The notes below the pieces were generated by a model. It saw only the letters and a program-made list of their open reading frames with translations. It was not told where the DNA came from and did no database searches. Of a stretch of DNA of 64,000 nt, positions 1-64,000 are shown piece by piece. The DNA lies in the NCBI GenBank assembly GCA_042563375.1, contig JBHPMF010000001.1, positions 11,007 through 75,006 of the forward strand, written 5' to 3'. Source of the stretch: Elusimicrobiota bacterium. Lineage in GTDB: Bacteria; Elusimicrobiota; Elusimicrobia; JACQPE01. Numbering within the stretch: position 1 is the first letter of the stretch; each line of letters begins with the position of its first letter. Made by a program: the position numbers and the translations under genes.

Positions 1-1567
1 TGTGTATTTATTGGGTTGCACCTCTTCAAAGGCTTCAATGTAATTCTGATCAAGAACGATCAGGTTGTTATGCGGATCAAGCATGAAGTCAGTCGGATTA
101 ATGAATGAACCCAGAGCGCCTTTTTCCTTTGTTTTGCCCTGCGCTATGATCGAGAGGTATTTGCCCTTACTGTCGAGTATCCATATCCCAGGAATGCCTG
201 AATCAAGGACGAATAGCCTGTCTTTTTCCTTGTTGTAATGGATCTTAGACAGCTTTGTGAAGGTGTTGGGCGCAATGCTTTTGCCGGTGTTGGGGCCATA
301 GCTTGCAAGGTAGATACCCTGTTCAGTGTATGTATGTATCTGTTTTAAATCCATGACATAGAGCTTCTCATTCGCGTATATAAGATCACGGGGGTTCTTT
401 ACGGCTGATTTCTTGAAGCTGACTGTGGCGTTTAATTTTAGAGTTTTGCGCTCAAGTATCAGCATTTCCTTTCTGCTTAAGATATAAAGGAATTTTCCCT
501 TGCTGTCTGAGGTTATTGAGATAATCTTTGAAGGCGCCACAGGCTTGCCTTTCTGATTCTTCACTGTTCCAAGCTGTGAGATGCTGCCTTCATTGTTCAT
601 AATGTATATGCCGGCTTTTTTGCCTTTGTTTACCAGAACGAACATGTTTCCGGATTTTTGCGCATCCTGCTTGATCACAGCCGGGTCTGTGAAAAACGGG
701 GTCTTTTTCCCCTTGTCAAACGACCATTTGGAGAATTTGCTTGGGCTTGAAAAAATAATTTTATCCTTGTTCTCAACCTCAAAACTCTGGATCCTGCGGT
801 TCTTGGCATCCAATACCCATAGATTCTGATCATTATCGATCGCAATATCGCATGGGAAATTGAATTCTCCGCGGTTTTTGCCTTTTCTGCCGAAATTCCC
901 CTTGGTTTTAAGTTTCGGAGACATCTCGATTATGCTGCTCTTTGCAGTGCCTGCGTAAAGCCACATGTAATTATCAAGGGCAATGGAAATAATGCCTTTT
1001 GCCTCTACGCCGCCCAGTTTGCGTCCGCGTTCATTGACGACAATGATGGTATTGCCTCCGAGGATGGCAATCGAGTCTGAATGCCTGTTGATCGATATCT
1101 TGCTGTTCTTAGGGTATTTCCCGAATGAATATTGGGGCTGGCCTGTGGCGGTCAGCAGATTAAGAGCCCCGTTAAAAAACCATATTCTTCCCACGCTGTC
1201 CAGATCAAAATCACTTGCCTGCTTTGTCTTGGTGAGCAAGCGCCATTTATTGTTTTTATGGGGCTTAAGCCATATTTCACCCTGCTTGTTGAGCGCGAGC
1301 AGGTTTCCCATGCCGTCAATCCGCATTCTGAGCACCTGCTTAAAAGGCACATAGAGCTCATTCCATTTTTTCTCCTCTATATCATAGTGCCAGGCTTTTT
1401 TAGAGCTTGCCACATAAACAATCTTGTTTTTGCTGTCAGCGGCCAGGATGCTGGGATAGCCTTTTTTTCCGGGCATTTTTATTTCTTCAATAAGTTTAAT
1501 GTTTTCAAAAGCATGAGAATTGGATAATGCGAAAACAGCAAGGCAGCCAATGATTACTTTTTTCATA
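1..1567 (-). CDS. NHL-repeat six-bladed beta-propeller protein with N-terminal signal peptide. Partial: the start (ATG at 1567-1565) is inside the window and the C-terminus runs off the window start.
   Basis: Manual minus-strand translation gives MKKVIIGCLAVFALSNSHA... followed by repeated G.F..P.DIAID.D.N.WV.D..N.RIQ.F units typical of NHL repeats. The frame is open to position 1. The plus-strand ORFs listed at 581-1527 are antisense artefacts of this gene. Confidence 0.55.
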
Positions 1568-1647
1568 TCTTCCTCCGAATTAGTGTGGCGATGATTGCGT
1601 TCTTATATCTTAGCTAAATCTTTTGAGTCGTTAACCGGCTCATAAAT

Positions 1648-1680
1648 CACACTAGCGCCTTGCTAACAAGGCGCTAGTGT
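1648..1680 (-). terminator. Perfect 13-bp-stem palindrome (cacactagcgcctt gctaac aaggcgctagtgt) 27 nt downstream of the etfA stop. It is a terminator-like hairpin or a protein-binding palindrome in the promoter of the NHL gene.
   Basis: Inverted repeat read directly. Only a weak T-run follows on the minus strand. Confidence 0.35.
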
Positions 1681-1706
1681 ATCAGAAATTACCTCAGACC
1701 TGTATA

Positions 1707-2729: not shown

Positions 2730-3538
2730 TAGAGTACTTTCAACTCCTTTAGTTTATCAGCAAGAACCTTGGCTTTCTCGTTCGGATCAGCCCCGTCTAT
2801 CTTCATGCCGGCGCTGCGCGTTGGAGGCGCAAAATTCTTGACTACTGTTGTAGGGCTTCCCGCTACGCCGATCTTTGTCTTGTCGCAGGATAGTTCATCA
2901 GGAGTCCATCTGGTGATAACCGCTTTTTTCGCTGCCATTTTTCCTTTTAATGAAGGAAGCCTGGGCTCATTGATCTCCTTTACAACCGAGATAACAGACG
3001 GCAATTTCATCTCGATCACGTCGTATCCGTCTTCCATCATGCGATGTATGGTGATCGTTGAGTCAGCGAGAGCCTCTATCTTTTTAACGAATGACGAACT
3101 CGGCCACTTAAGCCAGGAAGCTATCTGCGGCCCAACTTGCCCTGTGTCGCTGTCGCTTGATTGCTTTCCGCAGATCACCAGGTCCACTTTATTGTCTTTG
3201 AGTTCCTTGATCTTGGCTATGGCTCGTGACAGGGCGTAGCTTGTGGAGTATGTGTCAGCGCCTTCATACGCATTATCACACAGGGAAAATGTCTGGTCGC
3301 ATCCGCGCGATATCGCGTCTTTTAGCGCGCCTTCAGCCTGAGGCGCTCCCATCGTCAATACGCCGACCCAGGAGCCAGGGTTTTTCTCCTTTATTCTGAC
3401 CGCTTCCTCAATTGCGTATTCATCAAACGGATTGAGCTGACCCGCATCTGCGTCTTTTTTTATGGCTCCGTTCGCGTCAATAGCAACATTGGTCGATGAA
3501 GGTGTTTGTTTAACGCATACAACTATATTGAATGGCAT
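2729..3538 (-). CDS. etfB: Electron transfer flavoprotein beta subunit
   Basis: MPFNIVVCVKQTP... matches the typical EtfB N-terminus. It sits directly downstream of the acyl-CoA dehydrogenase. Confidence 0.9.
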   Translation of the reverse strand: MPFNIVVCVKQTPSSTNVAIDANGAIKKDADAGQLNPFDEYAIEEAVRIKEKNPGSWVGVLTMGAPQAEGALKDAISRGCDQTFSLCDNAYEGADTYSTSYALSRAIAKIKELKDNKVDLVICGKQSSDSDTGQVGPQIASWLKWPSSSFVKKIEALADSTITIHRMMEDGYDVIEMKLPSVISVVKEINEPRLPSLKGKMAAKKAVITRWTPDELSCDKTKIGVAGSPTTVVKNFAPPTRSAGMKIDGADPNEKAKVLADKLKELKVL

Positions 3539-3544
3539 TTTAAC

Positions 3545-4801
3545 TTACACCCCCACCGGCACTTTCGCGTCTTTGGATGCTGTTTCCTTGATAAGCATCA
3601 TTGCGATCTCGTTTCTCTGCATCTGGCTTGTGCCCTCATATATCTGAGTGATCTTCGCGTCCCTCATGTATTTTTCCACCGGGAAGTCCCTCATATAACC
3701 TATCCCGCCGCAGATCTGCACGCAGTCAGTCGTGACCTTCATGGCTACATCAGCGCAGAAGAGTTTTACCATGGCTGAATATTTAGTGAGCCTGCCCGGA
3801 TTAAGAGCGCGCAGTTCCTCATACACGAGTTTGCCTGAAGTACGGCTTTTCGCAATGGATTCTTTCAGGAGCTTATCCATCATCTTATTGACCGCATACA
3901 TGAGCGTGCGCCCTGCTTCAATTTGAGCTGCGCAGTCAGCGAGCATGTGCTGTATGGCCTGGAAGCTGATGATAGGCTGTCCGAACTGCCTTCGCATCTT
4001 GGCGTATTCCATGGTTTCTTCCATGGCGCCGTGGGCAAGTCCGATAGCTTGCGCGCCTACGCCGATTCTTGAAAAATCAAATGTAGTCTGCGCTACGAAC
4101 AAACCTCTGCCTTCGCTCCACAGCCTGTTCGCCGCCGGGACTTTGCAATTATCAAAAATCAGTTCGTATGTGGGGCTTGCACGGATCCCCATCTTTGTTT
4201 CTTTTTTGCCCATTGTGAATCCGGGGGTCCCTTTTTCAACAACAAAAGCTGTTATTCCCCGGGCTCCTTTCTTTGGGTTGGCATTGGCGAACACTATATA
4301 TAGTTCAGCCACTTCTCCATTGGAAATGAATGTTTTCGTTCCATTGAGGGTATAGTGATCCCCATCCAGTTTTGCGGTTGTTTTTTGAGCTGTCGCGTCT
4401 GAGCCTGCTTCAGGCTCAGTGATAGCGAATGCTCCGAGTCTTTTTCCTGATGCAATGTCCGGTAACCACTTCTTTTTTTGTTCTTCATTGCCGAAAATAA
4501 GGATCGGTATGGCGCAAAGGCCGTTCGCTGCCACGCATAGCGCGACTCCGGCGCATGCCTTGGAAAGTTCTTCCACAACAAGGCAAAGCTCAGTGTTGGC
4601 TCCGCCCATTCCGCCATATTCCTCCGGAAGGTAGACGCCCATAAGGTCTGCCTGGCGCAGCTGTTCCACTACTTCCCATGGAAATGATTCATCCTCATCA
4701 TGTTTCATACGGACGGGTTTTATCTTTTTCTGGGCGAGTTCCCTCGATAAATTTATTATTTCCCGTTGTTCCTCTGTGAATTCAAGATCTAGAGATTGCA
4801 T
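3545..4801 (-). CDS. Acyl-CoA dehydrogenase (butyryl-CoA dehydrogenase-like)
   Basis: Acyl-CoA dehydrogenase family motifs (GGMGG..., YEGTSQ) and the classic ACAD-etfBA gene order. RBS aaggggga lies 8 nt upstream of the ATG. Confidence 0.9.
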   Translation of the reverse strand: MQSLDLEFTEEQREIINLSRELAQKKIKPVRMKHDEDESFPWEVVEQLRQADLMGVYLPEEYGGMGGANTELCLVVEELSKACAGVALCVAANGLCAIPILIFGNEEQKKKWLPDIASGKRLGAFAITEPEAGSDATAQKTTAKLDGDHYTLNGTKTFISNGEVAELYIVFANANPKKGARGITAFVVEKGTPGFTMGKKETKMGIRASPTYELIFDNCKVPAANRLWSEGRGLFVAQTTFDFSRIGVGAQAIGLAHGAMEETMEYAKMRRQFGQPIISFQAIQHMLADCAAQIEAGRTLMYAVNKMMDKLLKESIAKSRTSGKLVYEELRALNPGRLTKYSAMVKLFCADVAMKVTTDCVQICGGIGYMRDFPVEKYMRDAKITQIYEGTSQMQRNEIAMMLIKETASKDAKVPVGV

Positions 4802-4823: not shown

Positions 4824-4888
4824 GGATCCCGAATCAAGTTCGGGATGAATATGATACATCTCCGGTAGGGGATGCATTATATTCATTT
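4824..4888 (-). repeat. Copy 1 of a conserved ~65-bp double-hairpin element that begins at the TGA stop of rnc and ends ~20 nt before the ACAD ribosome-binding site
   Basis: Near-identical copies at 49823-49887 and 56267-56330. Two inverted repeats: gaatat(g/a)a..tctcc / ggggA..tatattc and atcccgaa / ttcgggat. Confidence 0.7.
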
Positions 4889-5614
4889 GGCTTGAGCCTG
4901 GCGCAAATAAGCCAGTGCTTCTTTTGCGCCGCTTTGCTCTGCTTCCTTCTTGTTCTTTCCTATGCCTCTTCCTAAAAATTTACCCCTGAATACAACATCA
5001 ACCTGGAATGTCTTCTCGTGTTCCGGTCCCCAGCTTTTGGTTAAGCGATATTCAGGGATGCTTTTGTACTTTTTCTGTATGATCTCCTGAAGGCGGCTTT
5101 TATAATCCCTGAGGATAAACCGTTTCTTCTTGCTTATCCATTTGTCGATTATCAACTCATGGCAGTGTTTGATGCCGCTGTCCAGGTAGATCGCCCCGAT
5201 TATCGCCTCAGCGCAGTCTGCTAAAATGCTCTCTTTTTCCCTGCCGGCATGCTCGAGTTTTCCATTCCCAGAGCCATCGTCAAAGAGAACGAATTCTTCG
5301 AGACTCAGGTATTTGGCCAAGTCAAGAAGACTTCTCTTTGAAACGAGCATAGACTTGAGCTTTGAAAGCCTCCCTTCGTCAGATGTCGGAAACCGTTCAT
5401 ACAAATGAGATGCTATCAGCATGTTAAACACGCTGTCTCCCAGGAATTCAAGCCTTTCATTTGAGAAGGGAAGGCGTTTCCTTTTAGCGTAGGAAGAATG
5501 CAACAGGGCAAGTTCAAGGTGTTTTGAATCCTTGAATGTTATGCCCAGCCTTTCTTCCAGGGCGTCAATGATTTGGGGCTGTACTGCTGATGTATCCACT
5601 TTGTCAGGACACAA
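4883..5614 (-). CDS. rnc: Ribonuclease III
   Basis: ERLEFLGDSV signature of the RNase III catalytic domain plus a C-terminal dsRBD. It lies downstream of acpP. Confidence 0.9.
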   Translation of the reverse strand: MCPDKVDTSAVQPQIIDALEERLGITFKDSKHLELALLHSSYAKRKRLPFSNERLEFLGDSVFNMLIASHLYERFPTSDEGRLSKLKSMLVSKRSLLDLAKYLSLEEFVLFDDGSGNGKLEHAGREKESILADCAEAIIGAIYLDSGIKHCHELIIDKWISKKKRFILRDYKSRLQEIIQKKYKSIPEYRLTKSWGPEHEKTFQVDVVFRGKFLGRGIGKNKKEAEQSGAKEALAYLRQAQAK

Positions 5615-8611: not shown

Positions 8612-9768
8612 AAAAAAAGCCGCTTGTATAACACTTCCTGGTCTTTGACCATCTTGTTTATATCAAATTCCGCGTCTATACTGGATGCCGCGCATTTGGA
8701 CATTTTATCCCGCAGCTGCGTGTCGCTTAAGATATCGCTTACATGCTTGGTGATGCTTTTAAGATCCGCGCAGTCCGATATGAATCCGTTTTGCCCGTGT
8801 ATAACCACTTCCTTGACCCCGTCTGTCGCGTAGGCGCATACGGGGATGCCGGCGCAAAGGGCTTCAAGGACGCTTCTGGGCAAGCCTTCCCAGAGGCTTG
8901 TGAGCACAAAAATATCCGCGGCTTTCAATAGGTCCGCGGTATCTTCTCTCCAGCCTAAATGCCTGGAATTTTCCGGGATATCACCCAGAATGTTGTTTTT
9001 ATCATCCCCGCCAACGAATAAGAACAGGGCGTCGGGAAGCTTGCTCTTGAGAGCTTGCGCTATATTGAAGAAATCTTTGGGATTTTTTTGTTTCTTAAGA
9101 TTTCCGATGGTCACGGCGATCTTGCGCGTGCTGTTGAAACCGAGCCTCTCGCGTATCGTATCCCTGGACTCGGATTTTTTGTATTTTGCTATATCAATTC
9201 CGCTTCGTATCAGTACCTGCTCTGCTTTTCCGGGGATACAATGTTCCTTGGCGATGCGGATATTTTCCTTTGATACATACACAAGCGCGGTTGTGATTTT
9301 GGCTGTGATCTTCTCGATCCATATCAAAAAATTTCTTAAAGGCCGTTTCTGTCTGTCATGAAAGCCGAATCCATGGAAAGTATGGATGATAACAGGAGTG
9401 CCTGCGAAATAGGCCGCCCAGCGTCCCAATATCCCGGCTTTGGAGGAGTGTGTGTGGATGATATGGGGTTTTAAGCGCCTGATAAGCAGGAATATCTCGA
9501 TAAAAGCCAATAAATCAGATAGCGGCCGGATTTCTCTTATCAGATGCTTCAGCCAGAACGTGGGGCAAGTCGATCTGAAATTTTCAGCTTTGCTGTCAAA
9601 ATAACCTCCTGCGCCGGAGGCAAGGACCGGCTCGAATCCTGTCCTGTCAAGATGGGTCACGGTGTGAAGCGTGTTCTGCTGCGCCCCCCCGAATTCAAGT
9701 TTTGTGATCAGGTGAAGAACCTTTATCATATAAAGTGTTAGACGTAAAACGTGAGACGTGAGAAGCAA
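8608..9768 (-). CDS. Glycosyltransferase family 4 (GT-B fold)
   Basis: GT4-like C-terminal domain (EGLPRSVLEALCAGIPV). First gene of the glycan locus. Confidence 0.8.
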   Translation of the reverse strand: MLLTSHVLRLTLYMIKVLHLITKLEFGGAQQNTLHTVTHLDRTGFEPVLASGAGGYFDSKAENFRSTCPTFWLKHLIREIRPLSDLLAFIEIFLLIRRLKPHIIHTHSSKAGILGRWAAYFAGTPVIIHTFHGFGFHDRQKRPLRNFLIWIEKITAKITTALVYVSKENIRIAKEHCIPGKAEQVLIRSGIDIAKYKKSESRDTIRERLGFNSTRKIAVTIGNLKKQKNPKDFFNIAQALKSKLPDALFLFVGGDDKNNILGDIPENSRHLGWREDTADLLKAADIFVLTSLWEGLPRSVLEALCAGIPVCAYATDGVKEVVIHGQNGFISDCADLKSITKHVSDILSDTQLRDKMSKCAASSIDAEFDINKMVKDQEVLYKRLFL

Positions 9769-9890
9769 GAAGCGTGAGACGCAAGACGTGAAACGTGAGA
9801 AGTGTGCCAGAAAACAGAATTCAGAATTTTTTTCTTGCTTTTTATTTTTAACATTTCACGTTTCACATCTCACGTCTTACGTCTCGCGTT
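9737..9890. repeat. Heptamer-periodic long hairpin, family 1 site A (GTGARAC/ACGTGAG units). The right arm overlaps the stop of the FAD oxidoreductase gene.
   Basis: Left arm 9737-9804, loop containing cagaaaacagaattcag, right arm 9852-9890. The stop (tca, rc TGA) at 9870-9872 is inside the arm. Confidence 0.75.
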
Positions 9891-11198
9891 CTTCAAGATC
9901 GTTTCCGCGGCTTGTTTCCCCTCAAGCAGGGCTTCTTCCATAAAGGAATATTTCCAGGCGCCGTACCTGCCTATGGAAAGAATATTATTCGCTTTCAGGT
10001 AGTTCATGACTTTGGGCATGATGAGCTGTCTGGTTTTTGTAAATATCACGTAGCCCGGATCGATCCCACACCACTCTTTGGCGAGAATCCTGTCTGAGGA
10101 CTTAAGAAGTCCGATTGATTCGAGTTTTCTTATTGCGGCACGTTCGTTTTTGTTGAAATCAAAGCGACTTGGACTTCTTGTCGCAAATTCAATGTAGAAC
10201 GAGGTCGCGTTTGTTGGGGCGACTTTTGGGGTGAAATTGCTGGCGACTCCAACGCGATAAAAAGGAAATTTGGGCTCAGGAAAATAAATCCAGTGTTTAT
10301 CGGTTATGTTCCCCCTGTTCACGCCGAGGTTCAGGTTAAAAACAGCGGCATATGGCAAGGTGGACGCGCGCTTAAACCAGGATGGAGTTCTTGAGGTAAA
10401 GCGCTTGGCAAAGAACGGCAGGGGGCTCGTGTTTATCAGCCAGTCGTACTTAAAGCTTGCGTATGGCGTGTGCACTGTGCGCTTTTTCGCATCTATCTCA
10501 AGCGCCTCGTGCCCCGGATAAATCTCAGATTTTTTTAATCTGCCGGCAATCGCGTTTGGCAGAGACTGGATGCCTCCGACTCGCGGATAATAAAATAATG
10601 CGTTATAACCCAGAGGCTTATCCTGGTTTTTTATAGCCCCATAAAGCACTTCTTCCCGAGTCGGGACAGGCACAAAACCTTTTACCCATTCCGCGGTCAT
10701 TTGATTCAGGTCGCAGCAGAAAAGTTTCCTGTTATACGGGTTCATGAAATATTTTGATATTCCCTTTCCGAACACCTCAACGCACCATTTGGCAAAGCTG
10801 GAGTTCGAAGAAGGCTCTTTGAATTTGTCGCGCGCTTTAAGAAAATGAGCCACGCATTGGGCGGCTGTTTTGCCGGGCAGTTCCGAGAGATTAGCCTGGA
10901 ATGGATATTTGCTGAACTTTTTTTGATTGAATATGAAACTTTTGCGCTTATGCCGGCAAAGGTTGTTTTTCAAAAGACCGTTTAATATCCATTTTGTGGT
11001 ATATGGGTTATGCAGATGCAGGAGATGTCCGGAAATGTCAAATGTAAATCCATTATGCAAACTTGAGCTGGCCAATCCGCCAAGGCGCTCGTTTCTTTCA
11101 AGAATAGAGATCTCAACGGGTTTATTTCCGGAAAATTTCTCAATATGGAATGCGCTAGATAGGCCTGCAAGGCCTCCGCCGATAATCACGACCTTCAT
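9870..11198 (-). CDS. FAD-dependent oxidoreductase (amine oxidase / protoporphyrinogen oxidase-like fold)
   Basis: N-terminal GxGxxG dinucleotide-binding motif (VVIIGGGLAGLSSA). Exact function not assignable. Confidence 0.7.
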   Translation of the reverse strand: MKVVIIGGGLAGLSSAFHIEKFSGNKPVEISILERNERLGGLASSSLHNGFTFDISGHLLHLHNPYTTKWILNGLLKNNLCRHKRKSFIFNQKKFSKYPFQANLSELPGKTAAQCVAHFLKARDKFKEPSSNSSFAKWCVEVFGKGISKYFMNPYNRKLFCCDLNQMTAEWVKGFVPVPTREEVLYGAIKNQDKPLGYNALFYYPRVGGIQSLPNAIAGRLKKSEIYPGHEALEIDAKKRTVHTPYASFKYDWLINTSPLPFFAKRFTSRTPSWFKRASTLPYAAVFNLNLGVNRGNITDKHWIYFPEPKFPFYRVGVASNFTPKVAPTNATSFYIEFATRSPSRFDFNKNERAAIRKLESIGLLKSSDRILAKEWCGIDPGYVIFTKTRQLIMPKVMNYLKANNILSIGRYGAWKYSFMEEALLEGKQAAETILKNARRKT

Positions 11199-11339
11199 AA
11201 TTTCTCAAAATAAACGAAATTAAATTTCATTTGTACCATTCATATTCTCATTCGTACACCATTCGCGTTGAGGCTCAATTGAATCAGCGCGAATTAATAC
11301 GAATTATATACGAATACGTACAAATAAAACAGGAAAGTT

Positions 11340-12015
11340 ATTTATCTAACGAGGACGTATGGACTTTGCTCAGAATGGTTCCTTTTTGATGCGGTGAGCA
11401 CTTCGACTTCGCTCAGTACGTTGCACGCTCTATCGAGCCATAGGGGATGTGTTAGTGGACTTGGATCCCGGATATTTACCACATTGCACTTTATATTAAT
11501 CCCGGATTTTGCATTAGCCGTCAAATCGGGAATACAAAGACGGGACTATCTTTTCCGTTTTCTAATGCAACGCAATTAGAAAACACGACTAAAATACACT
11601 GATTGCCAACGGATTTCATTCTTTAATTTTTCAACCTAGAATCCTTCAGTTCACCTGCTATTACCGTCGGGAATGGCGGAACTTTCCTATTGCCCCCTCA
11701 CCCTGCCCTCTCCCTCAAGGGAGAGGGGAAAGAGAAAGTCAGCTGAGAATTCCGGGTTTAAGGAAGAATCCTAATGCAAAATCCGGGTTAATAGCGGATA
11801 TGTGTTAAATTCTGGGATGAATTAAACGCATCTCCGGCCCTTCGACTTTGCTCAGGGTGGTTCCTTCTCGATGTGGTGAGCGGAGTCGAACCATAGGGGA
11901 TGCATCAGCGGATTTGGATCCCAGACATTTACCACATTGCACTTTATATTAATAGCGGATATGTGTTAAATTCTGGGATGAATTAAACGCATCTCCGGTA
12001 GGGGATGCGTTTAAT
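11340..12015. repeat. Tail of the ~800-bp ORF-free intergenic region (11199-12015). It carries a duplicated ~115-bp segment (11355-11500 and 11838-11951), direct 47-bp repeats (11792-11838 and 11951-11998) and a stop-embedded hairpin (11978-12020).
   Basis: Self-similarity read directly. No protein-coding frame of 60 aa or more. Confidence 0.5.
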
Positions 12016-13081: not shown

Positions 13082-15196
13082 CTATTGCTCTATTATGTTA
13101 AAAACAAAATTTTGCGGGAGCATGGTTGTTGCTTTGGCTGTAATCCGTATAGTTTTGGTTGTTACGCCGAATTCCGGTGAATAAAAGAATTCTCCTTTCT
13201 CAAGAGGGATCTGCGAGACGATCGCGAATACGCGGCCTGACGGCATGGAGATCGCGGCCCTGTCTGCCTTGAGATCGACAAGGCTTGCTTGCGGGTGCAG
13301 TATAAAATTCCATACGCAGATTATTTCCTCATGATGAGAGCTTGGGGTAAGCAGCTCATCCGTGATCCCAAGCTCGCATTTGTCCCCGTTTTTTAGAAGC
13401 AGGCTTCTCTTGTGGGTTATCGGCGGCTTAAGTTTCCCGTATCCGTTATGCTCGCCGCTAAAGCTGCATTGCCGCGTCTTGGGATCATATTCGCAGCGAA
13501 GCAGAGGGATTTTTGTCACGTCCTCTTTTAAGCAGAATGGCCCGAGATCCATCCGGTTTTGCTCCTCGTTGTTTAAAATAAGTGTTGTGTGCGAGGATGT
13601 GCTGCGCATCTGATTCCTGAGGGACCTGTTCCTTAAATAGCATCCGGTGCCGGGGTCGACGAATAGGTCCTCTCCGTATGGAGAAAATTCAATGGCCAGT
13701 TTGTCATTATGGCTGTGTCCCCCGTTTCCAGCCTGGCCGTTGGGAATAGTACAGAACGCCAGAAAATGTTTCTTTGCCGGATCATGAAAAGTATGTATCC
13801 CTCCATTAGGCAAAGAAACAATCACCGGTTTTCGCTCCATCGCTCCATCGCTCTGCCGCTCCTTCATATTTTTGTCCGCTTGTGCCGGTCCCAGGAGCCA
13901 TAATGATTCCGGGGCGGGATCGTGGCAGTATATGGGCGGCTTTAGATCCTTGAACACGCAGGACCCGATGTGGGCCAGATAGGAATGATCCAGGAGCGGG
14001 CGTCCGGGGTTGAGCGCCAGGAATCGCCCTGAATCATTATCTCCGAACTGCGCCGCATGCCCGTTGCCTTTTGTGAAAGCGTATGTCGCTTCCACCATTT
14101 TTTTGAGTTTATCCTTATATTGGGCGCGCACAGAATCCTTGTCTGTTATGAGATAGCTGAATAAAAAGAATTCTGTTACAAGGCGGTGATAGCTTGTTGA
14201 AGCCTCAAAATCCATTCCATCAGCGTATACCTGGAAATCCATCTGCTTATTGAATTCATCCTGAGAAAGCTCAGTCCAGTATCTGCTTGCCCGAAAATGA
14301 GGATACATGCGCCCTGCGAAGGAAAGACCCGCAAGATTCGCCAGGAAATGGTTCGAAGTCCATTCAAAGTTCTTCACAATATGCATGGCGTGGTTAAAGA
14401 CCAGGGACGGCAAGATCCTTTTAAGGTGCTTGAGTTCTTCCGGATGATGCGCAAGCTTATTTTCAATGAGGCCGAGGGCGAACAGGATATTGGCTATTCT
14501 TATGCCTACATCCATTGTGCAGGCCCAGTTGACTCCTTTTGCCGGAGGATTATGTTCGTACCAGTCTGATATCTGGGTGAATATCTCCTTGCAGTATTTC
14601 GCGTCTTCTGTGATCAGGTAGGCCTGAGCCAATGTGACTAAATGGTGAAATCTGGATAGCTCCCAAGGGACTTTCACATCTCTGCCGTCATCCTGAGCGT
14701 AGTCGATGTTGAGATACAGGGCTTTTGGGTCAAAAAGGCGGCCGCTGATAAAGTCATAATGCCAAGGCAGATAGGTCGGGGCAATGCCATGTTTTTTCGC
14801 GAGTTCTATGGAAAGGGCTTTAAGGTTTCTGGGTTTCTCCTCGAGGACCCGGTGATTACCCGCTAGATATTGGTCAGCGGCAGCAGTAACAGCTTGGACA
14901 TGTTTTGGGTGATCCGCCTTGAGGATCGACACAAGGGATTGCAGCTTGTGAGCCGGGCAGAACGGGAAATTAATGCCGAGCTCAAAATGTCCGATCTGCC
15001 CAAGACTCTCAAGCGCCGCGAACTTTATCCGTTTGTCGCTGACCCATGTGTTCCTGTGCCATGATATCCAAACATTCAGGAAGATGCGACGAATAAGATC
15101 CTTGATTTTAATAAGGATCTTGAGCATCACGATCCTGGGCGGATTTTGCAATGCTCGTTTGAATCTGGACAGCAAGATCGGGTGTTTCTGTATCAA
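13082..15196 (-). CDS. Heparinase II/III-like family protein (alginate-lyase-fold polysaccharide-modifying enzyme)
   Basis: Length and aromatic-rich central region typical of heparinase II/III-like proteins found in surface glycan loci. Assignment is by family resemblance only. Confidence 0.6.
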   Translation of the reverse strand: MIQKHPILLSRFKRALQNPPRIVMLKILIKIKDLIRRIFLNVWISWHRNTWVSDKRIKFAALESLGQIGHFELGINFPFCPAHKLQSLVSILKADHPKHVQAVTAAADQYLAGNHRVLEEKPRNLKALSIELAKKHGIAPTYLPWHYDFISGRLFDPKALYLNIDYAQDDGRDVKVPWELSRFHHLVTLAQAYLITEDAKYCKEIFTQISDWYEHNPPAKGVNWACTMDVGIRIANILFALGLIENKLAHHPEELKHLKRILPSLVFNHAMHIVKNFEWTSNHFLANLAGLSFAGRMYPHFRASRYWTELSQDEFNKQMDFQVYADGMDFEASTSYHRLVTEFFLFSYLITDKDSVRAQYKDKLKKMVEATYAFTKGNGHAAQFGDNDSGRFLALNPGRPLLDHSYLAHIGSCVFKDLKPPIYCHDPAPESLWLLGPAQADKNMKERQSDGAMERKPVIVSLPNGGIHTFHDPAKKHFLAFCTIPNGQAGNGGHSHNDKLAIEFSPYGEDLFVDPGTGCYLRNRSLRNQMRSTSSHTTLILNNEEQNRMDLGPFCLKEDVTKIPLLRCEYDPKTRQCSFSGEHNGYGKLKPPITHKRSLLLKNGDKCELGITDELLTPSSHHEEIICVWNFILHPQASLVDLKADRAAISMPSGRVFAIVSQIPLEKGEFFYSPEFGVTTKTIRITAKATTMLPQNFVFNIIEQ

Positions 15197-44434: not shown

Positions 44435-44540
44435 GCAGGACAGCATGCAGTAGACAGTATACAGGGAAGATAAATAATTCTTAATCCAAGGAAATCCTTT
44501 TCTTTCCTGTATGCTGCCTACTGTCTGCTGTATGCTTTTA
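44435..44540. repeat. Family 3 heptamer hairpin (AGCATGC/AGTAGAC/AGTATAC units) between lpxI and lpxA, ending 2 nt before the lpxA stop
   Basis: agcaggacagcatgcagtagacagtatacagggaag / ctttcctgtatgctgcctactgtctgctgtatgctttta. Confidence 0.7.
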
Positions 44541-44542
44541 TG

Positions 44543-45373
44543 TCAGTTGTCCAGTGCTGCTTTTCGTGGGCTAGCTATGCCCCGCGGTCCGGGCTGCTTT
44601 ATGAAATCATAGAAATGCTTGACTTCCGGTATTGACATGGATTCAGACGCGGATAGTTTATTGAGAGCTTCTTCGCGCAAAAGCTCAGACACGAACACCA
44701 GCTTATAGGCTTCTTTTAATGCGCTCATGGTGCTTTTGGTTATCCTGCATCTTCGTAATCCCACTATATTGAGACCTGATACGCCTGCCCTGTTGCCCTG
44801 GGCAATGCAATAAGGAGGAACGTCCCGCTCGACCATTGAGCCGCCGCCAAGCATAGCAGCGGTTCCAATGCGCACAAACTGGTGTATTGCGGCTAGTCCG
44901 CCTACAACAGCGAATTCGCCTATTGTAACATGTCCGGCCAATGCCACGGAATTAACCAGGATAACGCTGTCACCGAGCACACAATCATGCGCTACGTGCG
45001 AATAAGCCATGAAAAAACAGTTTTTCCCTATTATTGTTTTGCCTTCGCCCCCGTCCCAGGTTGTTCCGCGGTTAAGCGTCACGCATTCCCTGACAGTAGC
45101 ATTGTCTCCAAGACACAAAAGTGTTTTCTCGTCTTTAAATCTGAGATCCTGCGGAGGGGTACCTATTGCGGCATGTGATAATATGCGGCAATTCTTGCCT
45201 ATCTGCGCGCATTCGATGTAGGTGTAAGCGCCTATTTTTGTGCCTTCTCCTATCTCTACATTTTCGCCTATTACCACATAAGGGCCTATCTGGACGTTAT
45301 CCGCGATATTAGCGGACTTATCTATTACTGCGGTTTGGTGTATTGTGCCTGTCATTTTACTTTTGTTAGACAT
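44543..45373 (-). CDS. lpxA: Acyl-[ACP]--UDP-N-acetylglucosamine O-acyltransferase
   Basis: Left-handed beta-helix hexapeptide repeats with an LpxA-type C-terminal helical domain (VGLRRCRITKSTMSALKEAYKLVF). Confidence 0.9.
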   Translation of the reverse strand: MSNKSKMTGTIHQTAVIDKSANIADNVQIGPYVVIGENVEIGEGTKIGAYTYIECAQIGKNCRILSHAAIGTPPQDLRFKDEKTLLCLGDNATVRECVTLNRGTTWDGGEGKTIIGKNCFFMAYSHVAHDCVLGDSVILVNSVALAGHVTIGEFAVVGGLAAIHQFVRIGTAAMLGGGSMVERDVPPYCIAQGNRAGVSGLNIVGLRRCRITKSTMSALKEAYKLVFVSELLREEALNKLSASESMSIPEVKHFYDFIKQPGPRGIASPRKAALDN

Positions 45374-54566: not shown

Positions 54567-54673
54567 ACGTAAGACGTGAAGCGTAAGACGTGAGAAGTTC
54601 GGCAGAAAACAGAATTCAGGATTTTTTCTTTTTTTGCTTTTAACATCTTGCGTCTTACGTCTCACGTTTTACG
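54567..54673. repeat. Family 1 heptamer hairpin site D. Its loop shares cagaaaacagaattcag with site A. The right arm supplies the ..VKRET* end of McsA.
   Basis: acgtaagacgtgaagcgtaagacgtgagaagt / acatcttgcgtcttacgtctcacgttttacg. Stop TAA at 54655-54657. Confidence 0.75.
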
Positions 54674-55020
54674 ATCTCCTTGATCTTGTCGCGAAGGATG
54701 GCGGCTTTTTCGTATGCTTCCTTTTTTATGGCTTCCGAGAGGTCTGATTTGAGTTTTTTAAGATCCTCTTTTGGAGCTGTTTTTTTAGCTCTTGGATCCG
54801 CTATCTTGCTTGGAGAATATGAGATCCCTGTATGTTTTGAGCTGCCGTGTATTTTTTTCACTACCTCCTGCATAAGCTTATGAAAAGTGTCATAACACTG
54901 TGCGCATCCCACAAAACCGGTTTCCTTAAAAGCAGTGTATGTTGTAGCGCAGTTGGGGCATTTGAGCACCGGGGGCTTGCTTGCTGGCCTGTGATAGGTT
55001 CCGGAGGCCGCTCCCGGCAT
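54655..55020 (-). CDS. mcsA: McsA-like activator of protein arginine kinase (zinc finger plus UVR motif)
   Basis: CPNC...CAQC zinc ribbon and C-terminal EAYEKAAILRDKIKEI UVR-type motif. The frame stays open upstream to the ilvE stop and includes another CPDC. Confidence 0.6.
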   Translation of the reverse strand: MPGAASGTYHRPASKPPVLKCPNCATTYTAFKETGFVGCAQCYDTFHKLMQEVVKKIHGSSKHTGISYSPSKIADPRAKKTAPKEDLKKLKSDLSEAIKKEAYEKAAILRDKIKEIVKRET

Positions 55021-56997: not shown

Positions 56998-57002
56998 AAA
57001 TC

Positions 57003-57125
57003 ACACGTGAAACGTAAGACGTGAGACGTGAGAAGCAAGAAGCGTGAAACATGAAGTGGAATCTTGGATTTATTTCTTGGTTTTGATTTAAACATTTCAC
57101 GTCTCACATCTAACGTTTTACGCTG
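57003..57125. repeat. Family 1 heptamer hairpin site E, ending 1 nt before the stop of the lolC/E-like gene
   Basis: cacgtgaaacgtaagacgtgagacgtgagaagcaagaagcgtgaaacatgaagtg / acatttcacgtctcacatctaacgttttacgctg. Confidence 0.75.
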
Positions 57126-58398: not shown

Positions 58399-59893
58399 GC
58401 GTTTTAGGTTTCAATGTAGGGAACAATATTACTTCCCTGATGCTTTTAATATCAAGCAATGCCATGACAAGGCGGTCAATGCCTATGCCAAGGCCGCCTG
58501 TGGGAGGCATGGCGTATTCAAGGGCATTGATGAATTCATCATCAACAGGAGGAGCTTCTTCATCTTTCTCCTCTTCTCTTAAGGAAGCCTGGACCTCCAT
58601 CCTTTTTCTCTGCTCTGCCGGGTCATTTAATTCCGTGAAAGCATTGGCTGCTTCAGCATGCTTGATAAAGAGTTCGAATCTCTCAACAAGATGCGGTTTT
58701 CCGGGCATTGATTTAGCGAGAGGGCTGATCGCTGTGGGATAATCAAACATAAATACTGCTTCCCCAAGCTTAGGAATAACGCATGTATCCATGATCTTGT
58801 CGAAGATCTTATTTGTCGGCATTGCTTCATCAGCTTTTATCTGCAAGCCAGCTGCTTTTTCCTTTAATTTAGCGCGGTTGAATCTGTGCGGATCATCAAG
58901 AAGATTTTCCAGGTCCTCGCCTGTGGCTTTCTTCCATTCTTCGGGCAGGCTCACTCGCTCAAAAGTCATTTTCGGTTTTCCAAGGGAGTCCTGAGCATTG
59001 TTGATTATCTCTGTTGTAAGCTTAGCCATACCTTCATAATCATTGTACGCCTCATACACTTCAAGCATCGTGAACTCAGGATTATGCTGGGTGTCGATAC
59101 CTTCGTTCCTGAAACATTTTCCTATCTCATAGACCTTTTCCATGTCTCCGACAATGAGGCGCTTAAGGTAGAGCTCCGTTGCTATGCGCAGGAATAGATC
59201 TGTTTCCAGGGCATTATGGAAACTTGTGAATGGCTTGGCAGCGGCTCCGCCTGCTTTTATCTGGAACACAGGCGTTTCCACTTCAGTGAATCCCTTCTGA
59301 TTCAGCGTATTCCTTACGGAGTCGATGATCTTCGCCCGGGAACCAAATATCGAGGCTATCTGGGAACTTGACATTAGATCAAGATATCTTTGCCTGTATC
59401 TGGTCTCAGTGTCTTTGAGTCCGTGCCATTTCTCGGGCGGAGGGTTGAGTGACTTTGAAAGAAGAGACCACTTTTTCGCGTGCACTGACGGCTCTCCTGT
59501 TTTGGTTTTGAAAGGAAACCCTTCTATCCCAACGATATCTCCCACCTCAATGGTGCTGGAAAATATGGGGTAAGTATCCGCGAGTTCGTCTTTTCTCATG
59601 TATATCTGGATCTTGCCTGTGGAGTCCTTTACATGAAAAAATCTTGTTTTACCCATGGATCTCATCTGCATTATGCGGCCCGCAACTATCACTGTTTTGT
59701 CCTCAAGCCTTGCCCCTATCTCAAGGTCCTTGGCGAGATCATAAACTTCCTGAGCTTTGTGGGTTCGGTTGAATCGCGGCGGATACAGATCGATCCCCGC
59801 GTCTTTTAAGTGCTGTATCTTAAGTTCCTTATCTTTATTCATAATTAATCCTGTAATTATATTACGCAATAGCGCAATAATGCAATAACGCAA
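58391..59893 (-). CDS. lysS: Lysine--tRNA ligase (class II). Probable true start MNKDKEL at 59842; the 17 upstream codons are a translation of 8-mer repeats.
   Basis: OB-fold anticodon-binding domain plus class II motifs (FRNEG, GGLGIGIDRL). Confidence 0.9.
   Translation of the reverse strand: MRYCIIALLRNIITGLIMNKDKELKIQHLKDAGIDLYPPRFNRTHKAQEVYDLAKDLEIGARLEDKTVIVAGRIMQMRSMGKTRFFHVKDSTGKIQIYMRKDELADTYPIFSSTIEVGDIVGIEGFPFKTKTGEPSVHAKKWSLLSKSLNPPPEKWHGLKDTETRYRQRYLDLMSSSQIASIFGSRAKIIDSVRNTLNQKGFTEVETPVFQIKAGGAAAKPFTSFHNALETDLFLRIATELYLKRLIVGDMEKVYEIGKCFRNEGIDTQHNPEFTMLEVYEAYNDYEGMAKLTTEIINNAQDSLGKPKMTFERVSLPEEWKKATGEDLENLLDDPHRFNRAKLKEKAAGLQIKADEAMPTNKIFDKIMDTCVIPKLGEAVFMFDYPTAISPLAKSMPGKPHLVERFELFIKHAEAANAFTELNDPAEQRKRMEVQASLREEEKDEEAPPVDDEFINALEYAMPPTGGLGIGIDRLVMALLDIKSIREVILFPTLKPKTHE
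59853..59890. repeat. (GCAATAAC)-type 8-mer x4 tandem array in the lysS leader region
   Basis: tattacgcaatagcgcaataatgcaataacgcaataacg. Confidence 0.8.
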
Positions 59894-59906
59894 TAACGTT
59901 CCGGTT

Positions 59907-61976: not shown

Positions 61977-62067
61977 AGCAGATAATAGATAATAGATGGC
62001 AGATGGCAGATGGCTAAAAAAGAAAAGAAAACAATGGTACTGGGTTCTTTTTGATTTCTGGCGCCTT

Positions 62068-62856
62068 CTACCATGTGCCTTTTAGTTTTATTTGCAGCGG
62101 CACCAGGAAAGCTTTTATGGCGTCCATCAGGCGTATTTTCTTACCTTCTTTAACAGTCCTTGGGTTATAAGAGATGGGCGCTTCGCTGAATTTTATTTTT
62201 CCCTGTCCGGTCAGAGTACCTATCTTTGTGGATATTTCAGCTTCAATATCGAATCCGTATTTTTCCAGGCTCAGGCCCTTGATAAGGTTTGTTCTGATGA
62301 TTTTTCGTCCTGTATAGGAGTCAGTGATTAAGGTCCCTGTGAGCAGGCTTATCCATTTTGAAATGAACTTGTTCGCAAAAGCGCAATGCGGATATATTAC
62401 GGGATTGGGCTCAATAAAGCGGCTTCCAAAACATGCATCCAGGCTGTTTTGCGTGATATCCTCCATTATCCTGTCTATATCATGCGGGTCATATTCAAGA
62501 TCAGCATCCTGGATGCAAAAATATCTGCCTGATGAATGCTTGATCGCGGTTATAATGCCTGCGCCTTTGCCTTTTCGCTTTTCATGCTTGAATATCTTTA
62601 TAAGGCCGTTCGACTTATCAGCCATGCTTTTAATGATCTGGGGCGTCGCGTCTGTGCTTGCGTCATCAATGATCATGATTTCCTTGTTGATCTTCAGAGA
62701 AAGCAGTTCGGTGAGCACCCGGCCGACATTGGCTGCTTCATTAAAAGCACATACGGCAATAGTGACTTCCGGAAGATTCGTTTGGCTCATTCTCCGCACC
62801 CGAAGCTTTGCCTTGGTATTGTTCTGCCCATGATTATTCTTTGGGTTTTTTAGCAA
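62068..62856 (-). CDS. Glycosyltransferase family 2
   Basis: VTIAVCAFNEA...IIDDASTD and DADL motifs. Confidence 0.75.
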   Translation of the reverse strand: MLKNPKNNHGQNNTKAKLRVRRMSQTNLPEVTIAVCAFNEAANVGRVLTELLSLKINKEIMIIDDASTDATPQIIKSMADKSNGLIKIFKHEKRKGKGAGIITAIKHSSGRYFCIQDADLEYDPHDIDRIMEDITQNSLDACFGSRFIEPNPVIYPHCAFANKFISKWISLLTGTLITDSYTGRKIIRTNLIKGLSLEKYGFDIEAEISTKIGTLTGQGKIKFSEAPISYNPRTVKEGKKIRLMDAIKAFLVPLQIKLKGTW

Positions 62857-63988
62857 ATAAATAGACTTCGTTGTTTTGTGCGATCAAGCTGTATTCGCCG
62901 TTATCTTGAAGTTTCTCAATATGTTTACGGAGTTCGCTTTGGCCTGAAAGAGGCCATGTATTTCCATGTGCATCCACAATAACATAGTCAGCATTAGGAT
63001 TATCAGGAAACTGATAAAGGTTATTGCGTGTGGCAACATGAGGGCCTATGTCGGATTGCGCGCTTACTGATCCGTCCGCCGGCACGAGCGAAACAATGTG
63101 GCTCAAGGCAGTGCGATGAGATTCACTTATAGGTTTGTAGTATCTTGATACATTAAAGCTCCAGTGAATGATAATCAGGGCCATTATAGGCCAGATCGTG
63201 GCCTTAGAGACAGCTTTTCTTAATGTTAATTTGAATCCGCTGTCAGAGCGCAGTATCGCATTGAGGCCATAGCATGAGCATATTATGACAAGCGGAAGCA
63301 CAGCGCATATATATTGTCCGGACAGGGCCCGTTGAGTGGAATAACTGCTCAGGAAATGCGGAAGCGCAGCGAACAGCGGAAGCGCCATGGCCCATCCGCT
63401 TAAGATCGGCAGAAATATCATGGGCGTAAGAATTTTTAAGATTGTTTTCCATATGACCTGGTCTGAGAGCAGGTTTACGGCGACTTTGTGCGGCGTGAAA
63501 GTAAACGTGCGCAAAACCTCCTGCCAATTTGCGCCCAGGTTCTCGTATCTGTCCATATGCGTAGGCACCTGGGATCCAAGAAAAAACGGCATGATCACAA
63601 AAATAACAAGCACAAATACTATCGCGCTGGAGACGCCAAGAAGCGCGCCCATTATTTTTTTATCTTTCCAGTGAAAAGCCATAAAAACTCCTATGGCTGC
63701 TGATACATGAGGTAAATCCTCTTTGATAAACCACATGGCAATGAAGGCTGCCAAAGCTTTCCAGTGCTTTCCCGTGGATAGCCAATAAAAGCCCCATAAT
63801 ATGCAAGGCACTGCAAGAAATTCAGGATGATAATCAAATCGGTTTATTGCATGAAGCTGGGGGCTGAAAATATAGCATGCGCTAATTAGTATGGCCCATG
63901 ACCTTTGTTTTATTACAACAGCGCAGAGCTTATACGCTCCTATCGCGCCGAGAACCAAAAATAATGATTGAAACAGTATCAGCAGCAT
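62834..63988 (-). CDS. Polytopic integral membrane protein (DUF2079 / GT-C-like putative glycosyltransferase)
   Basis: At least 10 predicted TM helices. Overlaps the downstream GT2. No catalytic motif confidently recognised. Confidence 0.45.
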   Translation of the reverse strand: MLLILFQSLFLVLGAIGAYKLCAVVIKQRSWAILISACYIFSPQLHAINRFDYHPEFLAVPCILWGFYWLSTGKHWKALAAFIAMWFIKEDLPHVSAAIGVFMAFHWKDKKIMGALLGVSSAIVFVLVIFVIMPFFLGSQVPTHMDRYENLGANWQEVLRTFTFTPHKVAVNLLSDQVIWKTILKILTPMIFLPILSGWAMALPLFAALPHFLSSYSTQRALSGQYICAVLPLVIICSCYGLNAILRSDSGFKLTLRKAVSKATIWPIMALIIIHWSFNVSRYYKPISESHRTALSHIVSLVPADGSVSAQSDIGPHVATRNNLYQFPDNPNADYVIVDAHGNTWPLSGQSELRKHIEKLQDNGEYSLIAQNNEVYLFAKKPKE

Positions 63989-64000
63989 GGCGCTTTCCCA

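Follow-up and report, generated by a model that had tools for sequence, protein, structure and literature searches.

Tandem repeats with 7-nt units are a described feature of bacterial genomes. According to two later papers that recount it (PMC4679880 and PMC4692102), the survey of Mrazek, Guo, and Shah (2007) found heptanucleotide repeats to be the most abundant class of long simple sequence repeat (LSSR; 5 to 11 nt) in most genomes, placed LSSRs mostly in nonpathogens, and proposed that an approximately 7-nt polymerase contact favors slippage. Here, we report a tandem-repeat census of one 64-kb window (the whole stretch of DNA analyzed; 46% GC) of an Elusimicrobiota bacterium, in which direct arrays of 7- and 8-nt units are in large excess and approximately two-thirds are paired as ten inverted pairs, forming the arms of predicted intergenic hairpins. 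The original prediction, made from the letters of the window, regarded these arrays as the likeliest place for undescribed biology in the window and knew of no described system with their properties; however, heptamer LSSRs and inverted pairs are already in the literature, and the window arrays belong to a described class of hepta- and octanucleotide simple sequence repeats with paired inverted arrays, known from work of 1990 to 2015. Like the LSSRs of the 2007 survey, they run head to tail, are longer than chance, have period 7 as the dominant period, and use many units per genome; unlike them, they are mirrored as stem extensions, which these accounts of the survey do not describe.

The closest described arrays are the GGGAATC/GGGGAYT repeats of Xanthomonas and Nostoc. 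Rehm et al. (2015; PMC4692102) counted 186 and 183 GGGAATC arrays in two Xanthomonas genomes, strongly biased toward intergenic sequence and most often four units long, together with 70 to 75 convergent inverted heptamer pairs per genome that are capable of forming stem-loops. These arrays were mostly transcribed; at positions that Xcc and Xac share, they differed in length and sequence, and the authors could assign them no function (PMC4692102). The intergenic bias and the convergent inverted pairs are common to the window. In contrast, Xanthomonas uses one G-rich, G-quadruplex-capable unit, whereas the window has at least 12 units, none of the GGGNNNN type, and octamers too. The Xanthomonas repeats are also underrepresented between divergent open reading frames (ORFs), whereas both divergent spacers checked in the window carry hairpins. 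The short tandemly repeated repetitive (STRR) heptamers of Calothrix and Nostoc (Mazel et al. 1990, cited in PMC4692102), together with the Nostoc recF/recO heptamers, are similar in that a genome holds several tandem heptamers near promoters and start codons, and different in that they are described mainly as direct arrays and that phylum and units are not those of the window.

Two further systems concern arrays near start codons. MacGregor (2015; PMC4679880) described 169 direct sets of TAACTGA repeats and one indirect set in marine Beggiatoaceae, upstream of start codons that lack a ribosome-binding site; the genes included essential housekeeping functions with no functional theme, the unit was present in several phyla, and a sequence reader acting in a posttranscriptional regulon was proposed. 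The window likewise has arrays a few nucleotides upstream of start codons without a Shine-Dalgarno (SD) sequence, a geometry that may carry no meaning (see below), beside housekeeping genes without a theme. However, the TAACTGA system has a single unit in nearly all direct arrays, whereas units in the window are varied and mostly paired; no TAACTGA array was in the tandem-repeat list of the window. For hmw1A of Haemophilus influenzae, Rapun-Araiz et al. (2025; PMC12721329) showed that one arm of a long 5′-untranslated-region hairpin is a transcribed (ATCTTTC)n array, that expression rises when RNase III cleaves this hairpin, and that repeat number does not change unless transcription, the hairpin, and RNase III are all present. 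The window resembles this case in having heptamer arrays in predicted stems of at least 20 bp that end near start codons, and in encoding rnc. The hmw1A repeat, however, is a single adhesin contingency locus in which at least 11 repeats face a nonrepetitive G-rich arm and stem length is set by repeat number, whereas in the window both arms of the predicted stems are arrays of 3 to 12 units, at many housekeeping loci.

Period spectrum and abundance of arrays in the window

Arrays were called with Tandem Repeats Finder (TRF), with a score of at least 30 (nonredundant) as the main cutoff and a score of at least 40 as a stricter one. Order-3 Markov shuffles served as the window-wide null and, because the spacers are AT-rich, an intergenic-only control was run against composition-matched per-spacer shuffles of 31 padded spacers. 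The TRF output for the window comprised 52 rows, mostly of periods 7, 8, and their multiples. At the main cutoff, we observed 21 arrays of period 7 against 1.29 per shuffle and 7 of period 8 against 1.8 per shuffle, while period 6 had none and periods 9 to 11 were close to expectation. Exact arrays of at least three units numbered five for period 7 and one for period 8 (0 expected). The excess was sharper in intergenic sequence (period 7, 17 versus 0.30 at a score of at least 30 and 10 versus 0.01 at a score of at least 40; period 8, 4 versus 0.37 and 2 versus 0.00, respectively), and at the stricter cutoff the 31 padded spacers held no arrays of periods 4 to 6, 9, or 10. The unit-length spectrum of the window thus peaks at 7, with period 7 well above period 8, and the pattern is real and far beyond chance.

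A sequencing or assembly error mode could in principle generate such periodicity, and the source is probably a metagenome-assembled genome (MAG). However, we found nothing that favors this explanation: the repeats are inexact and a variant unit on one arm has its mirror image on the other, the arrays inside conserved genes are in frame, and many independent assemblies from different projects and phyla show the same architecture. We consider an artifact almost certainly not to be the cause.

The arrays are frequent in the window without being universal. Of the 28 arrays of period 7 or 8, 24 are intergenic or at an ORF edge, sequence that makes up approximately 10% of the window. Arrays occur in 12 of the 28 spacers of at least 60 nt (13 when hairpin B1, called by TRF with periods 14 and 21, is counted) and account for approximately 11% of intergenic bases, so that the proposed "universal building block" of noncoding structure was an overstatement. 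The prediction of at least eight units, all of 7 or 8 nt, was borne out, with at least 12 distinct units found, as were the contexts named for them: direct arrays, inverted pairs, gene 3′ ends (coaD at 33851 to 33876 and the gene at 9870), promoter spacers (hairpins C and D), and in-frame coding sequence (CDS). The further claim that the units are unrelated to one another was not supported. The at least 12 units are not all unrelated: the commonest, an ACGTGAG-type family, makes up approximately one-third of the arrays and accounts for five hairpins, whose loops are related as well. The 21 period-7 arrays fall into 14 loci, among which 11 locus pairs share a unit within one mismatch, compared to a mean of 3.8 and a maximum of 11 in 500 draws of random heptamers of equal composition. 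Reuse of units between loci is therefore nonrandom.

Since periods 5, 6, 9, and 10, counted as equally frame-breaking, are absent even from intergenic sequence, a generative, slippage-type mechanism is the natural reading of this spectrum, and selection alone is insufficient to account for the sharp 7/8 periodicity. A slippage mode had been suggested in the original prediction; the sharp spectrum and whole-unit changes in Gemmatimonadales (below) agree with it, and the idea is already published. With moderate confidence, we propose that whole-unit slippage makes and resizes the arrays and thereby extends intergenic hairpins, which are possibly RNase III substrates. Strand slippage would create hepta- and octanucleotide arrays and change them in whole-unit steps; because a step of 7 or 8 nt breaks the reading frame, such arrays would survive mainly between genes.

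Ten intergenic hairpins with arrayed arms

Ten hairpins were read on the coding minus strand, each with a pair of arrays as its stem arms. Predicted stems were approximately 20 to 33 bp, and RNA folding compared to dinucleotide shuffles gave z-scores of −4.2 to −12.2 for nine of them (A1 to A5, B1, B2, C, and D). They are listed here by position in the window:

9740 to 9892, minus strand: hairpin A1 (family A), 5′ arm (GAGACGT/GAAACGT)n, 3′ arm (TCTCACG/TTTCACG)n of approximately 9 units; −55.3 kcal/mol, z = −6.7
20400 to 20495, minus strand: hairpin A2 (family A), arms matching 32/33; −54.8 kcal/mol, z = −12.2
29385 to 29482, no strand assigned: hairpin D, octamers (CGTGCTCC)n and (ACAGGAGC)n (GGAGCACR); z = −5.9
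33800 to 33880, minus strand: hairpin E, (GAAGTTA)3.7 at 33851 to 33876 with a degenerate (CCTCYRA)n partner; folded without shuffle control
34385 to 34528, minus strand: hairpin B1, arms (GCATACA/GTAGACA)n and (CTGTATG/CTGTCTA)n, recG-to-coaD spacer; z = −6.6
36670 to 36830, no strand assigned: hairpin C, arms (GAATGAT)n and (TCATCAT)n; z = −4.2
41000 to 41178, minus strand: hairpin A3 (family A), occupying the entire lpxB-to-msbA spacer; z = −4.7
44415 to 44545, minus strand: hairpin B2 (B1 unit family), lpxA-to-lpxI spacer, followed by TATTTTCT; z = −5.3
54568 to 54678, minus strand: hairpin A4 (family A), between a UVR-motif gene (54655 to 55020) and an ATP:guanido phosphotransferase (McsB-like) gene; z = −4.9
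57000 to 57125, minus strand: hairpin A5 (family A), between an FtsX-like permease gene and an ABC ATPase gene; z = −6.2

In the five copies of family A, GAGACGT/GAAACGT units make up the 5′ arm and TCTCACG/TTTCACG units the 3′ arm, on either side of an A-rich loop. The copies are alignable over both arms and the loop (mean column identity, 56%), while arm length ranges from 3 to approximately 12 units. A1 lies between an amine-oxidase-like gene (9870 to 11198), whose stop codon is within the 5′ arm, and a glycosyltransferase gene. A2, flanked by two GT2 glycosyltransferase genes, has a near-perfect stem with variant units (CGCGAGA) mirrored on both arms and a T5 run after the stem. In A3, the 3′ arm consists of approximately 12 units and stops 10 nt short of the msbA ATG (40993); the 3′ arms of A4 and A5 end approximately 6 and 7 nt before the ATGs at 54561 and 56997, respectively. 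Family B consists of two copies with GCAKACA-type units; in B1, the arms match 27/30, with the order of variants mirrored. C and D occupy divergent spacers. C fills the spacer between recG (ATG 36666, minus strand) and rpmB (ATG 36853, plus strand), and one of its arrays ends 8 nt before the recG ATG. D lies between a pilin gene (28717 to 29190, minus strand) and pilB (29545 to 31308, plus strand), upstream of candidate −35/−10 hexamers on both sides, which were read by eye and were not listed by a consensus scan of the region. The array of E overlaps the final codons and stop of coaD in a convergent spacer with a T2SS-F gene. Units are also shared between hairpins and other arrays (AATGATG at 36675 and 47153; GGAGCAC-type at 29390 to 29476 and 26602).

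Even where the arm units differ, the loops have in common an A-rich stretch with GA(W)nTTCC or GAATTC after it (for example, 9805 to 9855, 34420 to 34490, 44450 to 44500, and 29412 to 29441). A core of the form GA-W2-6-TYC occurred in 7 of the 10 loops compared to 0.5 in shuffles, for a motif defined post hoc among family copies that are homologous, and this core is probably the palindrome continuing through the apex. Separately, we considered "purine-rich arm first" as an orientation rule and rejected it as uninformative, since it is true on both strands of any inverted repeat.

According to the proposed slippage mechanism, mirrored arrays around a short AT-rich core would extend stems to 20 to 33 bp and fill short co-directional spacers between housekeeping genes. 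Since both arms are tandem repeats, they could pair in any register, and a stem would therefore tolerate unequal slippage of its arms.

Comparison to relatives indicates when the hairpins arose. The nearest RecG relative of the window is 45% identical, and the closest genome among species representatives is an Elusimicrobia MAG with an MsbA 56% identical. Another Elusimicrobia MAG (L081; RecG, 44%) is syntenic across lpxC-fabZ-lpxA-lpxI-oxidoreductase-lpxB-msbA-zip-relA-(rpmB)-recG-coaD, with junctions that overlap or span 7 to 20 nt where the window has hairpin-filled spacers of 156 to 173 nt. For example, the lpxA-lpxI spacer is 156 nt in the window and 16 nt in L081, and lpxB and msbA of L081 overlap. 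No period-7 arrays were found in the syntenic L081 locus. Because gene order is the same and the L081 spacers are short and free of such arrays, we conclude that the hairpin elements were gained in the lineage of the window. The closest relative (L001) has one hairpin of like geometry, with GAAGTCT-type units, in its oxidoreductase-lpxB spacer, where the 3′ arm ends 9 nt before the lpxB ATG; the window has no oxidoreductase-lpxB spacer. Together, these comparisons suggest that the elements are recent and fast-moving.

Gain relative to L081 is also what would be expected if the hairpins were mobile elements of the MITE, REP, or REPIN kind, copied into spacers by a transposase encoded elsewhere (e.g., a RAYT or IS200/IS605 type that works on single-stranded hairpins), with slippage secondary. 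Like REP/BIME, REPIN, and MITE sequences, they are intergenic palindromes dispersed within operons; the five family A copies align across arms and loop in 64 kb, unit sharing is above random, and units are common to hairpins and to solitary or in-CDS arrays (AATGATG and GGAGCAC-type units; GGAGCGAT in two CDSs). Their arms, however, are tandem arrays of variable length (3 to approximately 12 units at 56% column identity) rather than a fixed imperfect palindrome. Inspection of the five copies by eye revealed no array-independent terminal inverted repeat, target-site duplication, or fixed ends, and no cognate transposase was found in the 64 kb. In Gemmatimonadales, moreover, the unit differs from spacer to spacer, and a conserved core keeps a fixed position while its arms change, which indicates evolution in place rather than insertion. 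We therefore regard a mobile-element origin as unlikely, if not strongly so.

The arrays might also be merely the stem sequence of ordinary intrinsic, in some cases bidirectional, terminators. The arrays of two Gemmatimonadales loci described below (L161 and L204) flank a GC-rich core between convergent genes, bracketed by an A-run and a T-run; in the window, E lies between convergent genes and T-runs follow the 3′ arms of A2 (T5) and B2 (TATTTTCT). These two are the only T-runs after a 3′ arm, however, and most hairpins have an AT-rich core and no U-run. Hairpins also lie within operons that are contiguous in the relative (lpxB-msbA and lpxA-lpxI) or, for C and D, between divergent genes. In addition, a consensus promoter and terminator scan flagged none of the array hairpins and detected no enrichment. 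We consider it improbable that the hairpins are ordinary terminators.

Array turnover in other genomes and possible roles of the stems

Direct evidence for whole-unit gain and loss came from Gemmatimonadales, a group from a phylum other than that of the window. One locus (L161; 64% GC) was assigned to this order, its GabT being 94% identical to proteins so named, and was compared to three syntenic Gemmatimonadales loci with protein identities of approximately 94 to 95%. Nearly every spacer of these loci contained 7- or 8-nt arrays. In the convergent spacer between the aminotransferase gene and Gcw, a GC-rich core hairpin (GGGGTGG..CCACCCC) and the coding flanks were conserved in the loci that cover the spacer (L161, L204, and L205), while the arrays flanking the core differed as follows:

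L161: 5′ (CGTGAGA)5 and 3′ (CTTCTCA) of approximately 4.5 units, bracketed by A5 and T5
L204: 5′ (CGTGAGA)3 and 3′ (CTTCTCA) of approximately 6.5 units
L205: octamers, 5′ (GGATGTTT) of approximately 3 units and 3′ (ACATCCMA)9.5

L161 and L204 thus differ by two whole units per arm, in opposite directions (5 versus 3 and 4.7 versus 6.7). Copies of one unit also differed in other spacers (5.4 versus 4.9 and 5.5 versus 3.1), and in the gabT spacer both arms carried mirrored GGTC-core units, of which every genome had new variants. As read from these alignments, units are gained and lost whole and turn over fast, including a switch from 7 to 8 nt, and the arrays behave as outgrowths of an existing hairpin. 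In L204 (3226 to 3265 and 3756 to 3792) and L205 (3281 to 3313 and 3841 to 3878), we also observed inverted heptamer arrays approximately 490 to 530 nt apart that bracket a whole spacer and do not make up a compact hairpin.

Similar units occur more widely. Metagenome contigs scanned with the family A 3′-arm motif gave matches on at least 120 contigs, a count that is uninterpretable because the search pattern is itself approximately 3 units long and no control unit was scanned. Among the matches listed, 80 loci ranged from 30 to 72% GC, and many had inverted (GTGAGAC)n/(GTCTCAC)n arms with stems of 25 to 35 bp. The period spectrum of the listed loci (461 kb) comprised 131 arrays of period 7, 14 of period 8, and 1 of period 6, with periods 14 and 21 also prominent. 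One contig (L106 1 to 8120; Ga0334890_1007458) carries at least nine concatenated direct heptamer arrays around an IS110-family transposase gene (3497 to 4597); the units include TCCAGCC, TTTACGA, GTTCACC, ACCGTTT, TCTCACG, TTTCCTG, CGATTCA, and others, and longer repeated blocks lie on both sides. Heptamer arrays were also present in loci picked for MsbA homology alone (L013 3258 to 3507; L008 16093 to 19270; L027 95 to 150 and 10285 to 10384). Among these, Flavobacterium fontis has (AGTCACT)14, and an uncultured bacterium has (AAATCCC)8.4 and (TTTGGGA)9.6 as an inverted pair. In Soonwooa, (TTAGATT)4.9 is followed nearby by a period-15 AATCT-type array, which may be an inverted partner. The arrays in these MsbA-homology loci fit the wide but patchy distribution in the literature.

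The spread of one unit type over contigs of 30 to 72% GC, Gemmatimonadales included (among the matches listed), is one reason to ask whether the arrays are binding sites of a sequence-specific protein or RNA reader with 7-nt modular recognition, governing a posttranscriptional regulon of the kind that MacGregor proposed. Array position is another. Arrays or 3′ arms end 4 to 12 nt before start codons, and at least five of the genes concerned lack an SD sequence (msbA, recG, and those with ATGs at 54561, 56997, and 61976; 4 to 10 nt), as does lpxB of L001. Lack of an SD sequence beside arrays is not distinctive, however, because only approximately one-third of all predicted starts in the window have an SD-like motif, and closeness of 3′ arms to start codons follows from geometry, since the elements fill their spacers. 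The genes associated with the arrays have unrelated housekeeping functions, and the metagenome count that would suggest a common unit is biased by the approximately 3-unit pattern. More directly, a single reader is difficult to reconcile with at least 12 units in 64 kb and with unit replacement and a 7-to-8-nt switch around one core at one orthologous site. A modular reader, the second mechanism offered in the original prediction, is therefore very unlikely, and the slippage mechanism would make a dedicated 7-nt reader unnecessary.

A role at the RNA level is plausible for hairpins in the seven co-directional spacers, either in RNase III processing or in protection of mRNA ends. A stem with both arms in one operon transcript would be open to RNase III and would block 3′ exonucleases. 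Neighboring cistrons would thereby be uncoupled in stability or translation, and the array would allow stem length to be tuned by mutation. Because RNase III is encoded in the window, co-transcribed stems would be expected to be cut:

4883 to 5614, minus strand: rnc (RNase III, a generic RNase specific for double strands), with Pfam Ribonucleas_3_3 and dsrm matches

It had been predicted that the window encodes no candidate protein partner of the arrays. This was correct insofar as the 64 kb encode neither a transposase nor a reverse transcriptase nor any other protein dedicated to handling repeats; however, the generic RNase III could cut transcribed stems. We infer slippage to be the enzymatic cause of the arrays and mirrored arms to result from hairpin-templated copying or selection for pairing; stem transcription, cleavage by RNase III, and any fitness effect we infer likewise. 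Searched at the gathering threshold, Rfam gave no match in the window.

Several observations weigh against this account. Slippage alone does not explain the presence of one unit at separate loci (family A; 11 pairs versus 3.8) or how both arms acquire one new unit, and it leaves the 7/8-nt step size unexplained. An additional process would then spread units between loci and mirror arms. Within family A, arm complementarity within elements showed no systematic excess over that between elements except in the near-perfect A2, and there is thus no general proof that arms are templated on each other. The evidence for whole-unit copy number changes comes from Gemmatimonadales, while the nearest relative of the window stands at 45% RecG identity. 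For C and D, one mRNA is unlikely to hold both arms because the spacers are divergent. Any function would be dispensable, since only 12 or 13 of 28 spacers carry arrays and the relative manages without them. Finally, in 9 of the 10 hairpins the predicted fold of the antisense strand is at least as stable as that of the sense strand (by up to 17 kcal/mol more), and transition mismatches in stems favor antisense G-U wobble by 29 to 13, many of them at shared family A stem-loop junctions and thus nonindependent. There is therefore no sign of selection on sense-strand RNA structure. Antisense RNA is not thereby supported; the bias may be an effect of the family consensus or of U-rich antisense loops.

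A broader version of the slippage reading would hold that a single generative process, acting in several phyla (Elusimicrobiota and Gemmatimonadota as well as Xanthomonas and cyanobacteria), grows mirrored 7- to 8-nt arrays outward from preexisting intergenic hairpins and swaps unit and period within the divergence of close species, the step size being a physical constant of an enzyme complex. Such a process may be linked to transcription and to RNase III in the way reported for the hmw repeat of H. influenzae. We hold this version to be doubtful and rather unlikely; if true, it would provide evolvable, register-tolerant stems that tune the strength of a terminator or processing site operon by operon. 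The 7-nt peak of bacterial tandem repeats has been known for almost two decades, with a cause proposed and no demonstration found in the literature. The window adds a deep-branching phylum to the carriers of heptamer arrays. To our knowledge, Elusimicrobiota and Gemmatimonadota genomes were unavailable at the time of the 2007 LSSR survey. In the Gemmatimonadales series, where copy number, unit, and period differ around a conserved core, rates of gain and loss and co-change of arms are measurable, and spacers can be chosen for reporter tests. A practical consequence for annotating such genomes is that RNA evidence should be in hand before an array-filled spacer is taken for a novel regulatory RNA.

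Arrays outside the hairpins and neighboring genes

Nearly all genes of the window are on the minus strand and have housekeeping functions. They include etfAB, acyl-CoA dehydrogenase, rnc, acpP, fabG, plsX, and polysaccharide and O-antigen genes; a type IV pilus cluster, coaD, recG, rpmB, relA/spoT, a ZIP transporter, and msbA; and lpxB/I/A/C, skp, bamA, clpC, mcsB, an ABC transporter, lysS, and prfB. Long ORF extensions into arrays are artifacts of mechanical calls, which took TTG or GTG as "first starts" at 9768, 59893, 20377, and other positions; the true lysS start, for example, is the ATG at 59842, downstream of the TTG call at 59893. Solitary arrays were found in four spacers:

26602 to 26636, minus strand: direct octamer array (GTGCTCCT)4.4 of the hairpin D unit family, immediately after the pilM stop codon
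43431 to 43452, minus strand: direct array (CAGCCCT)3.1 = (AGGGCTG)3.1, lpxI-to-oxidoreductase spacer
59864 to 59898, minus strand: direct octamer array (TTATTGCG)4.4, with ACGCAATA a rotation of GCAATAAC, between the prfB stop (59907) and the lysS ATG (59842)
61980 to 62014, minus strand: abutting direct arrays (CCATCTG)3 and (TTATCTA)2.6, ending 4 nt before the ATG at 61976

Two of these had been predicted. The (gggctga)3 array is present at 43431 to 43452; it had been placed upstream of lpxI but, as lpxI (43499 to 44386) is on the minus strand, it lies downstream of that gene and 53 nt upstream of the ATG of the following one. The (gcaataac)4 array of the lysS leader is likewise present, approximately 10 nt from the position given for it (59853 to 59890).

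Further arrays lie in or at the edge of coding sequence:

13832 to 13853, minus strand: in-frame octamer array (GGAGCGAT)2.8, linker between the N and C domains of a heparinase II/III gene
16201 to 16250, minus strand: in-frame GAGACAG-type array of period 7/21 (SGDREQETGDSQKKKET), in the ADH_zinc_N to GFO_IDH_MocA linker of ORF 15193 to 17409 (738 aa)
25414 to 25447, minus strand: octamer array (GAGGCGAT/GGAGCGAT)4.2 at the 5′ edge of ORF 24928 to 25449, pilus cluster
41768 to 41799, minus strand: in-frame array (TCAAATC)4.6 in lpxB, encoding NLKSQISNLKS in a variable interdomain loop
47153 to 47183, minus strand: in-frame array (TCATCAT)4.4 (hairpin C unit) in a skp/OmpH-like gene, encoding NSSFIIHHSSL

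The four arrays deep within CDSs are all in frame and lie in linkers, a loop, or the tail of an apparent signal peptide. At the site of the LpxB array, LpxB of L081 has a longer, unrelated insert. The array of the skp/OmpH-like gene is at the end of the apparent signal peptide, as read by eye from the translation. The 738-aa ORF may be a gene fusion created through an array-filled spacer. The GGAGCGAT arrays at 13832 to 13853 and 25414 to 25447 are translated in equal frame in unrelated proteins, as ..SDGAMER.. and MMRRWSDEEMRR.., respectively.

Three neighboring loci yielded minor observations. The region of approximately 800 nt between two envelope-polysaccharide genes (11199 to 12015) has no convincing ORF (the longest is 61 aa and of low complexity) and no Rfam match, and its repeats are of weak period 11 only. 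The small rpmB gene (L28; 36853 to 37029, plus strand; Pfam L28 match) has relA and recG as its neighbors but is encoded on the other strand, an arrangement that the syntenic relative shares. With a TATAAT box only approximately 10 nt before its ATG, the mRNA would be nearly leaderless, and the −35 region would fall in the (TTCATCA) array. The prfB gene (release factor 2; 59907 to approximately 61040, minus strand) has a canonical programmed +1 frameshift site (AGGAGG-N3-CTT-TGA-C) at approximately 60969, and its in-frame ORF begins only at position 60 of the Pfam PCRF profile. It is followed by lysS, which we take to be the gene order of Escherichia coli.

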